In this document: one piece after another, positions 29,685 through 35,022 of the stretch
Layout of the letters: every line of letters starts with the position of its first letter
Numbering within the stretch: the first letter of the stretch is position 1
NCBI GenBank assembly: GCA_910584085.1
Contig: CAJTZY010000003.1
Coordinates: 1,701-65,700 of the forward strand
Origin: an uncultured Bacilli bacterium
GTDB taxonomy: Bacteria > Bacillota_I > Bacilli_A > RF39 > UBA660
Direction: 5' to 3'
Length of the DNA stretch: 64,000 nucleotides
Made by a program: the position numbers and the translations under genes
The notes under the pieces: model-generated
Told to the model about the DNA's origin: nothing
The model's database searches: none
Seen by the model: the letters and a program-made list of their open reading frames with translations, nothing else

Positions 29685-31664
29685 ATGGAAAATCAAGAAA
29701 ATAATAAATATTTAGGACAAGAAAAAATATCAAAATTACTGTTAAAATTTTCTATACCTTGCATATTATCTTTACTTATAAGTTCTCTATACAATATAGT
29801 AGATCAAATATTTATAGGTAATAGTGAACTTGGATATTTAGGTAATGCCGCAACGACAGTAGTATTTCCAATTACAATTATAGCAGTAGCGTTTGCATGG
29901 TGTTTTGGTGATGGAACTGCTGCATTTTTATCACTATGTCAAGGTAGAAAAGATACAAAAAATGTGCATAAAGCAGTAGGTAATAGTATTTTAGTTACAC
30001 TCATAATAAGTATAATATTTGTAATTATAGGTTTCTTATTTATGGATAAAATATTATATTTATTTGGTGCTTCCGATACGTCAATTATACTTGCACGTGA
30101 TTACTTTAAAATAATACTCGCAGCAATCCCAGTTTATATGTTAGGTAATATGATGAATGCAGTAATACGTGCAGATGGCTCACCAGCGTTTTCAATGGCA
30201 TCAACACTCATTGGAGCAATAATTAATATCATATTAGATCCAATATTTATATTTGGACTTAAATGGGGAATAAAAGGAGCTGCATGGGCAACTATAATTG
30301 GACAAATAGCTTCATTCATTATTGCTATAATTTATTATTTTAGAAGTAAAACATTTAGATTAAAATTAGATAGTTTTAAAATAAATACTAAATTATTTAG
30401 TAATGTAATTAAGCTTGGGATATCAACATTCATAACCCAAATGTCAATTGTAATTATTTCATTAGTTTGTAATATTATGCTTGCAAGATATGGAGTAAAA
30501 TCTAAATATGGAGCAGATATCCCAATAGCTGTAATAGGAATATCTATGAAAGTTTTTACAATAGTAATAAACATAGTAGTTGGATTAATCTTAGGCGCAC
30601 AACCAATACTTGGATATAATTATGGTTCAAATAACTATGACAGAGTTAAAAAGACATTAAAAAAAGTTTTACAAATAACTGTTATAGTGGGAATAGTAGC
30701 CACATTAATATTTGAACTATGCCCACAAATTGTTATTAAAATGTTTGGAACAGAATCAGATTTATATATGGAATTTGCTACTATGACATTTAGAATTTTC
30801 TTAATGTTTATAATATTTACATGTATAATAAAAATGTCTTCAATTTTCTTTCAGGCAGTAGGTTCACCTTTAAAATCATCAATAGTTTCATTATCTAGAG
30901 ATATTGTATGCTTTGTACCACTTGTTATAATATTACCAAATTATATGGGTATAAAGGGTATTTTATATGCTGCCCCTGTTGCAGATTTTGTGGGTATAAT
31001 AATAACAATTATTTTAATTATTAATTTCTTTAAACATTTAGACAGTAAAAAAGAATTAGTAAATGATAGTGATGCTGTAATAAAGAAATCAAGTAGTGGA
31101 GTTATTATAACCATATCAAGAGAACATGGCTCACAAGGTAAATATATTGGTGAATTAGTCGCTAAAAAATTAGGTATTCCTTATTATTATAAAGAGGTAA
31201 CCGCACTTGTAGCAAGTAAAAGCGGATTAGATAAAGAATTTGTATCTAAGTTAAATGATAGTTCTAATATATTACATGATTTATATTTAACAACAACACC
31301 CATAAAATATGCTATAGAGGCACAAGAAAAGGTAATAAAAGAAATTGCTCAAAATGGATCCTGTGTAATAGTAGGTCGTGCAGCTGATTATGTATTAAAA
31401 GATAAAGAGAATTTAGTTAAAATATTTATTTACGCACCAAAAGATTATCGTATAACTAAAGTAATGGAAATGTATAATGATAATAAGGTAAGTGCTAAAA
31501 AGAATATAGAAAAATCGGATAAAGCAAGAAGAAGCTATTACTCTATTATTTCGGGTAAAGAATGGGGTAATAAAGAAAATTATGATTTATGTATAGATTC
31601 TAAATTAGGTACAGAGAAGACTGCAGACATAATTGTTGATTATATAAAGAATATTAATAAATAA
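29685..31664 (+). CDS. MATE-family efflux transporter fused to a cytidylate-kinase-like (PF13189-type) domain
   Basis: About 450 aa of 12-TM MATE-like sequence (LYNIVDQIFIGN...). A soluble C-terminal domain starts VIITISREHGSQGKYIGELVAKKLGIPYYYKE. Confidence 0.75.
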   Translation: MENQENNKYLGQEKISKLLLKFSIPCILSLLISSLYNIVDQIFIGNSELGYLGNAATTVVFPITIIAVAFAWCFGDGTAAFLSLCQGRKDTKNVHKAVGNSILVTLIISIIFVIIGFLFMDKILYLFGASDTSIILARDYFKIILAAIPVYMLGNMMNAVIRADGSPAFSMASTLIGAIINIILDPIFIFGLKWGIKGAAWATIIGQIASFIIAIIYYFRSKTFRLKLDSFKINTKLFSNVIKLGISTFITQMSIVIISLVCNIMLARYGVKSKYGADIPIAVIGISMKVFTIVINIVVGLILGAQPILGYNYGSNNYDRVKKTLKKVLQITVIVGIVATLIFELCPQIVIKMFGTESDLYMEFATMTFRIFLMFIIFTCIIKMSSIFFQAVGSPLKSSIVSLSRDIVCFVPLVIILPNYMGIKGILYAAPVADFVGIIITIILIINFFKHLDSKKELVNDSDAVIKKSSSGVIITISREHGSQGKYIGELVAKKLGIPYYYKEVTALVASKSGLDKEFVSKLNDSSNILHDLYLTTTPIKYAIEAQEKVIKEIAQNGSCVIVGRAADYVLKDKENLVKIFIYAPKDYRITKVMEMYNDNKVSAKKNIEKSDKARRSYYSIISGKEWGNKENYDLCIDSKLGTEKTADIIVDYIKNINK

Positions 31665-31750: not shown

Positions 31751-32725
31751 TTATTTATTAATTATTTCGGCTTTACATAAAGATACAAATGCAGGATTAC
31801 TATTATTGTTTCCCACTACTACAACCATACCATATTCACTTTTTAAAATAGTGCCTTGTGCAACAGTTTGACCTCCAGCATTAATGTCTACACCAGTAGT
31901 CCCGACTGGTAAATATGAACGACTTGCAGCCTCACAGTTAGAATCGCATCCAGTAGGTGTAGGAATAGGCGCTGGCAAATAAGTGATTGCATCATTATAT
32001 GTACTACTAGTTATTGTGATAGATGCTATTCTACATATAGATACTGCCTCTTCAGGTACACCTTGATTATTAACTAGTTGAAATAGTCCAGAATTTGGAT
32101 TATTATTTGGTCCAGGTAAAAGTGATCCAGGCCTTCCACTAGCATTATTACCACTTTCCATTGCTATAATTAAGTTATCATTTGGATATAAGGTAATAAT
32201 TTGTTGTATAATATTTCTCATTTGATCTACACATAAACAAGTTGTTGTATTCGCATTACTTCCGGTAGGTCCAGTAGGTCCAGTAGGTCCAGTAGGTCCG
32301 GTAGGTCCAGTAGGTCCGGTAGGTCCAGTAGGTCCAGTAGGTCCGGTAGGTCCAGTAGCTCCAGTAGCTCCAGTAGCTCCAGTAGGTCCGGTAGGTCCAG
32401 TAGCTCCAGTAGCTCCAGTAGGTCCAGTAGCTCCAGTAGGTCCGGTAGGTCCGGTAGGTCCAGTAGCTCCAGTAGGTCCAGTAGGTCCAGTAGGTCCAGT
32501 AGCTCCAGTAGCTCCAGTAGGTCCAGTAGCTCCAGTAGGTCCGGTAGGTCCGGTAGGTCCAGTAGCTCCAGTAGGTCCAGTAGGTCCAGTAGGTCCACCA
32601 GATGGTCCAGTAGGTCCAGTAGGCCCAGTAGGACCTATAATTTGACAACAATTAGGCTTGAGTTTATTATCCTTTTCTATTTTTTTTAAGGCTCTTTTAT
32701 ATAAACTATCATTATTACAATTCAT
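31751..32725 (-). CDS. collagen-like triple-helix-repeat protein, BclA-like exosporium/surface protein
   Basis: A long G-P-T/G-A-T triplet array lies between a short N-terminal region and a ~170-aa globular C-terminal domain. SD aaaggag precedes the ATG at 32725 ([12 protein letters not shown]...). The track start at 32743 contains the SD. Confidence 0.8.
32261..32636 (-). repeat. 9-nt-periodic coding repeat (GPT/GAT collagen triplets) with a higher-order internal duplication
   Basis: ggtccagta/ggtccggta/gctccagta units are tandemly iterated. One phase break occurs at GPSGGPTG. A roughly 70-100-nt block recurs (about 32420-32490 and 32520-32590). Confidence 0.9.
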
Positions 32726-32819
32726 AGATTTTACTCCTTTCAAACTATTATATGACGCATAATGTTATACACTAATAAAAAATGTTTAGTATTTAAATAT
32801 TTCTTTAAAAAAATATTTA

Positions 32820-32828
32820 TGCTATAAT
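32820..32828 (+). promoter_or_regulatory. extended -10 promoter (tgctataat) for the retron transcript
   Basis: TGnTATAAT match. The predicted start ~7 nt downstream coincides with the a1 repeat at 32832-42. Confidence 0.5.
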
Positions 32829-32831
32829 TTA

Positions 32832-33003
32832 TTTGAGCAATAGTGTTTGGATAATTCCAGCTTTAGCGAGTCGTTAAAGTACATAAGTATTTGATTAAAT
32901 AATTGTAATACTACAAAGGACTATTCTACACGTTGTGTAGCCGCTTCGTTACACTTCGCTTTTAGTCCATTTCCATATTACAATATAATTAGTATTGCTT
33001 AAA
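32832..33003 (+). ncRNA. retron msr-msd-like non-coding RNA
   Basis: a1 tttgagcaata (32832-42) pairs with a2 tattgcttaaa (32993-33003): 11 bp with one G-U. G residues at 32843/32845 lie just 3' of a1. The msr-like hairpin spans 32861-32879. The long msd-like stem pairs 32902-10 with 32976-84 and 32918-23 with 32963-68, with an apical hairpin at 32926-40. It sits immediately upstream of the RT on the same strand. Confidence 0.65.
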
Positions 33004-33016
33004 GGAGGTAATAAAA

Positions 33017-33967
33017 ATGTGGAAGTATATAACAAAAAAAGATTGTACCGAATTTTTATTATCTCTAAATTTAATTGATAATAAACTAAGTGATAAAGAA
33101 AAGGTAAAATTACTTTATTCAATTAGTAATAATATAGAAAATAATTACAAAATTCATAAAATAAAGAAACATAATGGAAAATTTAGAACTATTCATGAGC
33201 CTAGTTATTTGCTTAAATCTGTTCAAAGAAAAATATTAAATAATATTTTAAATAATAAATCAATATCTAAATATGCCAAGGCATATCACAAAGGAATAAG
33301 TCTTAAAGATAATGCATTACCACATTTAAGTAAAAAAATAGTTCTCAAATTAGATATTAAAAATTTTTTTGATAGTGTTAACTTTGTAGATATTTATAAT
33401 ACCTGTTTTGGAATAGAATATTTTCCAAAAACTATTGGGATGCTTTTAACTCATCTTTGTACATATTATGATTATCTTCCTCAAGGCGCACCCACCTCAT
33501 CATATATTTCTAATTTAGTTATGAAAGAATTCGATGAAGAAATAGGTGAATATTGTGATAGTTTAAATATATCATATACTAGGTATTCTGATGATATGAC
33601 ATTTTCTGGAGATTTTAACACGAGTGAAATTATAAAAAAAGTAAGAACTATGTTACATAAACTAGGACTTGAATTAAATAATGAAAAAATAAGTGTTATT
33701 AAATATGGTAATAGGCAAAGTGTAACGGGGATAAATGTAAATGAAAAAATACAAGTTCAGATAGATTATAGAAAAAAGATAAGACAAGAGATATATTTTA
33801 TAAGAAAATATGGAATAGAGTCACATTTAAAATATATAAATTATGTTGATAGTAAAGAGACCTATTTAACTAGTTTAATTGGAAAAGTAAATTATGTATT
33901 ACAAATAAATAATAGTGATAAAGAATTTTTAGAATATAAAAAATATTTAAAGGAGTTATATAAATGA
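33017..33967 (+). CDS. retron-type reverse transcriptase
   Basis: 316 aa with no extra domains. RT motifs are LDIKNFFDS, LPQGAPTSSYISN and YSDDMTF. The retron-typical NAxxH (NALPH) and VTG (SVTGINV) motifs are present. SD aaggagg. Confidence 0.85.
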   Translation: MWKYITKKDCTEFLLSLNLIDNKLSDKEKVKLLYSISNNIENNYKIHKIKKHNGKFRTIHEPSYLLKSVQRKILNNILNNKSISKYAKAYHKGISLKDNALPHLSKKIVLKLDIKNFFDSVNFVDIYNTCFGIEYFPKTIGMLLTHLCTYYDYLPQGAPTSSYISNLVMKEFDEEIGEYCDSLNISYTRYSDDMTFSGDFNTSEIIKKVRTMLHKLGLELNNEKISVIKYGNRQSVTGINVNEKIQVQIDYRKKIRQEIYFIRKYGIESHLKYINYVDSKETYLTSLIGKVNYVLQINNSDKEFLEYKKYLKELYK

Positions 33968-34380
33968 AAAAAATAGTTATTGCAGGAAGTGCAAAATTAC
34001 AAAGTGATATAGAATATTTTAAAGAACATTTTGAAAATAAAGGTTATATTATCTTAGACTATCCCCAAAAAATAGATGAATCTAAATTTATGGAAATATA
34101 TCCAAATGTGCATAAAAATTTTTTTGAGTGTATAACAAAAACTGATATATTATTTATTATGAATGCTGACAAAAATGGTACTAATGGATATATTGGTGCG
34201 GAAACTTTTGCAGAATTAACATTTGGTTTAGCACAAAAATTAGTTTATAATAAGGATATTGAATTAGTTATACTAAAAATGCCAGGTAAAGAAGTTGCAT
34301 GTTATGATGAAATTAGTTTATGGCTTAAGCTTGGTTGGATAAAACTATATGAAGGAGATTATTATGAATTTAAGAAATGA
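33964..34380 (+). CDS. nucleoside 2-deoxyribosyltransferase-like (NDT/DNPH1-fold) small protein; candidate retron effector
   Basis: The ATG overlaps the RT stop (ATGA). KIVIAGS forms the first strand. TDILFIMNADKNGTNGYIGAETFAELTFGLA fits the NDT pattern (acidic catalytic residue in a G..E..LG.A context). 138 aa with no DNA-binding extension. Confidence 0.55.
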   Translation: MKKIVIAGSAKLQSDIEYFKEHFENKGYIILDYPQKIDESKFMEIYPNVHKNFFECITKTDILFIMNADKNGTNGYIGAETFAELTFGLAQKLVYNKDIELVILKMPGKEVACYDEISLWLKLGWIKLYEGDYYEFKK

Positions 34381-34924
34381 AATAGAAAATTATATACCAT
34401 TTGATATCGAGGAGGAAAAAATTAAAGAACACTTATTAAAATGGATTGATGAATTTGATGATGTTTTAACTAGAAATAATGAATTTGGTCATTTTACATC
34501 ATCAGCATTCGTAGTAAACAAGGATAGAACTAGAATGCTTGCTGTATATCACAATATATATGATGCTTGGATTTTCCCAGGTGGTCATGCTGATGGAGAA
34601 GGGGATTTACTTTCTGTTGCAGTACGTGAAGTAGAAGAAGAAACAGGCGTAAAGCCCAAAATATTAGATAATTCAATTTTTGCAATTTCAGCCTCACCAA
34701 TAGTTGGTCATGTAAAAAGAGGAAAATATATTCCAGCGCACACACATTTAGATGTTATATATCTATTAGAAGCAGATGATAAAGAACAATTAACTTTTAG
34801 AAAAGATGAAAGCAAAGGTGTAAAGTGGATTACATTTGAAGAGGCAACTTCAAGTAATGTTGTTGATTTTATAAGACCTGTAAATAAAAGATTAATAAAA
34901 AAATTAGAATCATTAAAAAAATAA
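34364..34924 (+). CDS. NUDIX hydrolase
   Basis: Nudix box GGHADGEGDLLSVAVREVEEETGV. SD gaaggag precedes ATG 34364. It overlaps the preceding ORF by 17 nt. Confidence 0.85.
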   Translation: MNLRNEIENYIPFDIEEEKIKEHLLKWIDEFDDVLTRNNEFGHFTSSAFVVNKDRTRMLAVYHNIYDAWIFPGGHADGEGDLLSVAVREVEEETGVKPKILDNSIFAISASPIVGHVKRGKYIPAHTHLDVIYLLEADDKEQLTFRKDESKGVKWITFEEATSSNVVDFIRPVNKRLIKKLESLKK

Positions 34925-34935
34925 AAGTTTTACTT

Positions 34936-34960
34936 AAGACAAATTTTTGTCTTTTTTCTT
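34936..34960 (+). terminator. Rho-independent terminator closing the RT-NDT-NUDIX unit
   Basis: A stem pairing aagacaaa with tttgtctt is followed by a T-run. Confidence 0.75.
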
Positions 34961-35022
34961 ACAAAACTGTAAGGTTTATAATACTTATTTAGTGATATAA
35001 TAAAATTAATGGAGGAGTTAGT

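Follow-up and report, generated by a model that had tools for sequence, protein, structure and literature searches.

A predicted retron msr-msd RNA and Ec107-like reverse transcriptase cassette in an uncultured Bacilli bacterium

The Ec107-like retrons and the placement of the cassette

Stand-alone cassettes made up of an msr-msd RNA and a reverse transcriptase (RT) gene have been described in the Ec107 branch of RT clade 2 (Mestre 2020, PMC7736814). The same study asked whether the partners of such cassettes are encoded elsewhere or whether the cassettes serve another function. In the SPIRE survey of 2026 (10.64898/2026.05.14.725207), clade2_Ec107like is the second most abundant retron group: of its 192 candidates 93% belong to Bacillota and 91% are host-associated. 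The group is without recurrent accessory modules, and the published Ec107_like msr/msd covariance model is the one most often matched. Two further retron types serve for comparison. Ec86 (Retron-Eco1, type II-A) has a dedicated NDT-type effector; in type II-A effectors the NDT domain is accompanied by a DNA-binding domain. Type III-A, a sister RT lineage, has a PRTase-like effector.

The DNA analysed here (the window) is a stretch of 64,000 nucleotides from an uncultured Bacilli bacterium. At about 32835-33000 it very probably encodes a retron msr-msd non-coding RNA (ncRNA) that is transcribed together with an adjoining RT gene, the two forming a stand-alone Ec107-like cassette. A first-pass annotation, made from the letters of the DNA, had read this segment as msr/msd RNA, and that reading has held: a retron RT adjoins it, its helices covary across 76 loci, and a covariance model finds the RNA in loci on which it was not trained. 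Three retron features occur together: an RT with the NAxxH, VTG and YxDD motifs, an ncRNA whose msr and msd are enclosed by a1/a2 repeats, and opposed guanosines.

By homology and motifs, the open reading frame at 33017-33967 is a retron RT. Its best PADLOC model is RT_Ec107-like (429 bits, E 1.9e-129), matched over model positions 2-306 of 307. The RT_III-A model is second best (359 bits, 6.8e-108), and RT_II-A gives 227 bits (6e-68). The protein also matches Pfam RVT_1 and, below the model's own cutoff, an NCBIfam retron St85-family model (2.9e-64). Among solved structures the Ec86 RT comes closest (3.5e-33). The translation contains NALPH (an NAxxH motif), VTG and YSDD.

The cassette fits the clade-2 Ec107-like lineage (the Retron-Eco5/Ec107 branch), a placement drawn from the name of the PADLOC HMM and from shared properties rather than from a tree. 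The RT is a full-length best match to that HMM; the cassette likewise consists of msr, msd and RT without a recurrent accessory gene; and its relatives are likewise host-associated (gut) Bacillota. Ec107 is not prophage-borne (PMC7736814), which fits the outcome of a search through 2.9 million viral contigs, where no relatives were found. A phage or prophage origin was rejected on this result and on the housekeeping character of the neighbouring genes. The differences are that Ec107 itself comes from E. coli and that NDT-fold and Nudix genes follow the RT in the window's own sub-lineage (the window and loci L085, L094 and L095). The lineage has been described before, as has its RNA model, and the window cassette adds another member.

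Ec86 has the same general RNA layout: a1/a2 repeats that enclose msr hairpins and an msd stem, and a branching G opposite a second G. The Ec86 RNA sequence used for this comparison matched 48 E. coli genomes at 100%. A more specific likeness had been suggested by the octamer TTAGCGAG, and the string does occur in both RNAs. Its positions, however, are not homologous: in Ec86 it covers the end of a1 together with the branching guanosine, whereas in the window it lies inside msr hairpin 2, where the family majority reads TTAACGAG and the window carries a minority variant. Judged from these alignments, the likeness is a coincidence. The window lineage also lacks a conserved effector, and its RT matches the type II-A model far more weakly than the Ec107-like one. 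The combination that defines type II-A, a II-A RT with a co-occurring NDT effector bearing a DNA-binding domain, is not seen here. As for type III-A, no PRTase-like gene lies near the window RT.

Direct searches for nucleotide-level relatives yielded little. A blastn search of 5,426 complete E. coli genomes with the cassette returned only a 33-bp stretch in a type III-A RT, which, used as bait in turn, found only itself. Four conserved strings of the window RNA were absent from the supplements of the Khan census that were examined. A scan of positions 32000-35000 against Rfam release 15, at E up to 10, gave no retron family, the relevant one being the retron msr family RF00170. Its sole match, an sRNA inside the gene for p138 (see below), was rejected as chance.

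Structure and conservation of the RNA

The features of the cassette are collected in Table 1. The coordinates first proposed for a1/a2, the stems and the hairpins all proved correct when the sequence was read again. The 11 antiparallel pairs of a1/a2 include G32835-U33000 as their sole G-U. The msr-like hairpin with ttagcgag, at first placed at 32861-79, is present, a2 adjoins the Shine-Dalgarno (SD) sequence of the RT as had been described, and the reported enrichment in GC is borne out by a content of 0.33-0.34 over 32850-32999 as against 0.15-0.24 in the flanks.

Table 1. [quoted passage not shown]
Feature	Position	Strand	Basis or remark
Extended -10 promoter box TGCTATAAT	32820-28	+	Sequence and homologue alignment
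a1 arm tttgagcaata	32832-42	+	Core 32836-42 AGCAATA; likely transcribed part 32835-42
Candidate branching guanosine G32843	32843	+	First unpaired base after a1; priming role inferred from known retrons
Second conserved G, alternative branching candidate	32845	+	Not stem-adjacent
msr hairpin 1, TGGA/TCCA, loop TAAT	32848-59	+	Fold and covariation
msr hairpin 2, GCTTTAGCG-AGT-CGTTAAAGT	32860-80	+	Octamer ttagcgag inside at 32864-71
AT-rich unstructured msr/msd spacer	32881-32901	+	About 21 nt
msd template stem-loop	32902-84	+	Fold and covariation
msd basal stem	32902-10/32976-84	+	Fold and covariation
msd 7x7 internal loop, CTACAAA opposite ATTTCCA	Between basal and middle stems	+	Near-invariant in homologues
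msd middle stem	32918-23/32963-68	+	Fold and covariation
msd apical hairpin CTACAC/GTGTAG	32926-31/32935-40	+	Covariation
msd 3'-side variable bulge	32941-62	+	Alignment
msd unpaired tail	32985-32992	+	A32991 predicted first templated base; G32992 opposes branching G
a2 arm tattgcttaaa	32993-33003	+	Core 32993-99 TATTGCT
RT Shine-Dalgarno AGGAGG	33003-08	+	Abuts a2; RT ATG at 33017
Retron reverse transcriptase, 316 aa	33017-33967	+	PADLOC, Pfam, motifs
p138, 138-aa NDT-fold protein	33964-34380	+	AF2 model; start overlaps RT stop as ATGA
Nudix hydrolase	34349-34924	+	32-nt overlap with p138

The a1/a2 repeat by itself carries no significance. Inverted repeats of 11 bp that contain no more than one G-U and have a spacing of 120-200 nt number 58 in this AT-rich window and about 52 in block shuffles, so that the repeat stands at chance level. 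Folding and covariation upstream of homologous RTs, the checks proposed with the first-pass annotation, are more telling. The whole element folds at a minimum free energy (MFE) of -48 kcal/mol (z = -4.25; one of 200 shuffles is as good). Its MFE and centroid structures both contain the a1/a2 stem.

The comparative analysis started from 4,272 relatives of the RT in a protein database (E < 1e-20). A scan of one genome per species gave 188 loci, of which 80 were kept, all in metagenome-assembled genomes (MAGs) of gut or rumen Bacilli, 'Tenericutes' or Erysipelotrichaceae with RT identities of 59-74%. For 76 distinct sequences the 200-nt region that precedes the RT was aligned by MAFFT without structural input, and these regions align end to end. 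When RNAalifold is applied to the 76 loci, a1/a2, the two msr hairpins and the msd stems all reappear, with compensatory changes in 18 of 28 pairs. The helices of the first-pass annotation were also scored directly, together with msr hairpin 1 (six helices, 45 pairs). Standard pairing occurs in 87.2% of cells, as against 32.9-44.1% when the 3' partners are slid by 1-3 columns, and double-sided changes occur in 30 of the 45 pairs, as against 8-13 with slid partners. The observed value was matched by none of 500 shuffles on any of five measures. This comparative evidence is decisive.

Each helix contributes to this result. All seven pairs of the a1/a2 core are kept in the 76 loci and six show double changes: one pair is GC in 59 loci and AU in 15, another UA in 47 and AU in 14, and the arms switch together from GCAATA/TATTGC to GCAGTA/TACTGC and GCAGTG/CACTGC. 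The three core pairs of msr hairpin 1 are likewise kept across the 76 loci, each with some double changes, and its loop varies in length. Hairpin 2 is the most conserved part of the RNA, in an msr of 79% identity. Its eight conserved pairs, five with double changes, are formed in 89.8% of cells, its closing GC pair is found in 76 of 76 loci, and of its AGT loop the A and T are invariant and the G nearly so. This hairpin may be the element that the RT recognizes.

The bipartite msd stem capped by a 6-bp apical hairpin, as originally drawn, is upheld in full: all its helices are kept in the 76 loci with compensatory changes. They are paired in 94% (basal), 81% (middle) and 98% (apical) of cells, 11 of 21 pairs show double changes, and paired positions are 86% identical. 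The 5' arm of the basal stem reads ATTGTAATA, ATAGTAATA or ATATTAATA, with a matching 3' arm in each case. The middle stem switches among GGAC/GTCC, GAAC/GTTC, GTAC/GTAC and GGGC/GCCC, and the apical hairpin among CTACAC/GTGTAG, CTACAT/ATGTAG and CTATAC/GTATAG. The least conserved segment is the spacer between msr and msd (57% identity). A third msr hairpin within it was considered and rejected, its folding across the 76 loci being no better than that of shuffles. In the msd it is the 3'-side bulge that varies, by 0-24 nt among loci.

For the apical region the window sequence alone is misleading. RNAfold favours GTGTAGC/GTTACAC (32935-54) over the apical hairpin CTACAC/GTGTAG. This alternative was rejected because its 3' arm sits in a segment that many homologues lack, and covariation backs CTACAC/GTGTAG instead. 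The same bases, GTGTAGC and GTTACAC followed by TTCGCTTTTA (32935-32954, + strand), were flagged by a scan as a terminator-like hairpin with a T-run inside the msd; it is unconserved, since its 3' arm falls in the variable bulge.

A covariance model, R1, was built from the 76-locus alignment. It gives one match in the window, at 32826-33005 with 174 bits, and it also recovers the RNA outside its training set, directly upstream of the RT in the unused loci L081-85, L094 and L096-98 (133-167 bits). No match was obtained in loci without this RT (L086, L087, L088-92 and the E. coli type III-A locus L093). One locus of the family departs in its spacing: in L048 (3737-4001) the ncRNA ends about 77 nt short of the predicted RT start, against about 12-25 nt elsewhere, which reflects either an insertion or a misplaced RT start.

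Transcription, priming and the predicted msDNA

A box of the form TGnTATAAT upstream of a1 was found through the alignment of homologues. In 74 of the 76 loci the a1 core is preceded, at a distance of 4-10 nt (mostly 5), by a -10-like hexamer, which in 62 of them carries the TGn extension as well. A simple promoter scan did not list the box at 32820-28, because it has no good -35 element. From its position the transcript would start near G32835, and the outer three pairs of the 11-bp a1/a2 stem would therefore be absent from the RNA. The contiguous stem ranges from 6 to 12 bp in the family, most often 7-8, which puts the 11 bp of the window at the long end. The pairs described in the first-pass annotation do exist, but the conserved core comprises only 7-8 bp (32836-42/32993-99); the outer three or four pairs are lineage-specific and are probably not transcribed, since the start would fall downstream of them.

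A hallmark of retrons is that two guanosines face each other at the inner end of a1/a2 (Mestre 2020, PMC7736814). In the window G32992, just before a2, is invariant (76 of 76 loci), and the two candidate branching guanosines named after a1, G32843 and G32845, are borne out as a pair, each being G in 74 of 76 loci. Conservation alone cannot separate the two as the branching residue. G32843 is the better candidate because it directly follows the stem and faces G32992. The geometry of Ec86 is alike, with a1 ending ...CCCTTA before a G and a G preceding a2 TAAGGG; the first of these is the branching G of Ec86. That G32845 primes instead is rather unlikely, although it is as well conserved and one locus could speak for it. 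Of the two exceptions at the G32843 position, one is a misaligned row with a G by eye; the other, L009 (about 3830), has an A there and keeps the second G. Inactivity of this copy, a fault in the assembly or priming by the second G could each account for it. Against the last of these, L012, a near-twin of L009, retains the first G, and L033 carries an A at the position of G32845.

The extent of the product can be predicted from these landmarks. By analogy with Ec86 the first templated base would be A32991, and reverse transcription probably ends in or near the spacer 32881-32901. A length of 70-90 nt had been proposed for the msDNA. The msd stem-loop and a 7-nt 5' tail already come to 90 nt, so that about 90-96 nt is probably nearer the mark. 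As DNA, a candidate of 96 nt has a folding energy of -11.9 kcal/mol (z -2.9). Because the 3'-side bulge differs so much in length among loci, the length of the msDNA must vary within the family.

The mechanism that would follow, with G32843 as the preferred priming residue, can be set out in steps. (i) The msr-msd RNA and the RT gene would be co-transcribed from the TGCTATAAT promoter. (ii) The a1 core would pair with the a2 core, enclosing the msr hairpins, the spacer and the msd. (iii) The RT would bind the msr hairpins, as in the established retron mechanism. (iv) The 2'-OH of G32843, opposite G32992, would serve as the primer. (v) The msd would be copied leftwards from A32991, with a stop near the foot of the stem at about 32896-32901. 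(vi) The resulting msDNA would be branched and would fold into a hairpin.

Neighbouring genes and biological role

No protein family recurs beside the RT in more than 7 of the 80 loci, and a dedicated effector gene conserved next to it was seen neither in these loci nor in the closest relatives. Retrons are otherwise tripartite, and the Ec107 branch is a known exception (PMC7736814). Even the closest RTs (78-83% identity) have differing neighbours. The gene after the RT encodes an NPCBM-domain protein in L081, MnmA in L083 and IscS, followed by MnmA, in L096. Same-strand housekeeping genes may lie very close: the RT overlaps IscS by 17 nt in L096 (552-2628) and abuts MnmA at 3 nt in L083 (4001-5989). 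In the window (33017-34380) it overlaps p138 by 4 nt. The cassette seems to occupy the first position in unrelated operons, which its promoter could drive.

The wider neighbourhood of the window cassette is not a defence island. It contains a MATE/cytidylate-kinase-like fusion, a collagen-like protein, VanZ, PRAI and LysR. The fusion is a 659-aa open reading frame (29685-31664, + strand) in which a MatE transporter is joined to a C-terminal Cytidylate_kin2 domain (2e-47). The collagen-like protein (31751-32743, - strand; Pfam Collagen, 7e-16) consists of long GPT/GAT triplet repeats; its gene is repetitive, has a GC content of 0.54-0.58 in a genome of about 20-30%, and diverges from the retron promoter.

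Of the genes downstream, p138 and the Nudix hydrolase invite a functional reading. The AF2 model of p138 (pLDDT 93) has 4mcj as its best Foldseek match (E 1.4e-4) and also resembles DNPH1 and MilB; no Pfam family is matched. A tripartite system, in which p138 and Nudix form the effector module of a new retron type paralleling type II-A, could be built on this nucleoside deoxyribosyltransferase-like fold and on gene order: RT-p132/138-Nudix recurs in L085, L094 and L095. The RT gene of L095 is truncated; in L085 and L094, as in the window, RT and p138 overlap as ATGA. It is nonetheless improbable. The order is confined to this small sub-lineage: neither p138 nor Nudix lies within 4 kb of the RT in any of the 80 loci, and both are absent near the RT in L081-84 and L096-98 as well. 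Orthologues of p138 (76-77% identity) occur on hundreds of contigs without an RT, beside an HAD hydrolase, Nudix and TsaE/TsaB, and R1 finds no ncRNA there. Nor does p138 match the PADLOC retron effector models, and it lacks the DNA-binding domain of type II-A effectors. The overlap itself is matched in tightness by the IscS and MnmA arrangements of other RTs in the lineage.

Members of the p138 family (131-134 aa, 65-89% identical) are found widely among gut Bacilli, and p138 and Nudix together look like an uncharacterised nucleotide-sanitation module. Because most p138 orthologues occur without an RT, the two genes are read as a housekeeping pair of nucleotide metabolism, and most likely they are neighbours that the cassette happens to precede.

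Two readings that dispense with reverse transcription or with function remain to be weighed. The structured RNA might be a cis-acting 5' leader that governs translation or stability of the RT and is never itself copied. In the window a2 ends at the SD, the Rfam msr family is not matched, and no published msDNA was found for Bacillota members of the Ec107-like lineage, all of which such a leader would accommodate. The architecture, however, is that of a canonical retron beside a retron-type RT, and a GGAGG-like SD follows a2 at a distance of 0-12 nt among homologous loci, so occlusion of the SD is not conserved; the leader is accordingly a highly improbable reading. That the repeats arose by chance in AT-rich intergenic DNA and have no RNA function, as their barely elevated number over shuffles might suggest, is already refuted by the covariation and the R1 matches in unused loci and can be dismissed.

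The preferred reading is therefore still that of a retron msr-msd RNA in a stand-alone cassette, and for this window the result is ordinary annotation. How retrons without a neighbouring effector function is a question of the lineage, raised by Mestre 2020, and not of this locus. The cassette may take part in phage sensing with a partner encoded elsewhere, or it may have a different role. With rather low probability, the effector-less retrons are something other than toxin-antitoxin modules of abortive infection, the RT and msDNA acting with a distant partner or in a domesticated role: they are kept in hundreds of species of gut Bacilli beside unrelated housekeeping genes, with an RNA as conserved as the RT. 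In a variant of this view, the sub-lineage of the window may be beginning to couple the cassette to the NDT-fold/Nudix pair.

A retron RNA, including its helices and priming region, could be called correctly from sequence without tools. The analysis provides a precise anatomy for one member of the most abundant host-associated retron lineage: promoter, a1/a2 core, guanosines, limits of the template and a predicted msDNA. It also points to the features that are under selection, namely the loop of msr hairpin 2, the 7x7 internal loop of the msd and the apical hairpin, and these offer a start for finding the partners of such retrons.
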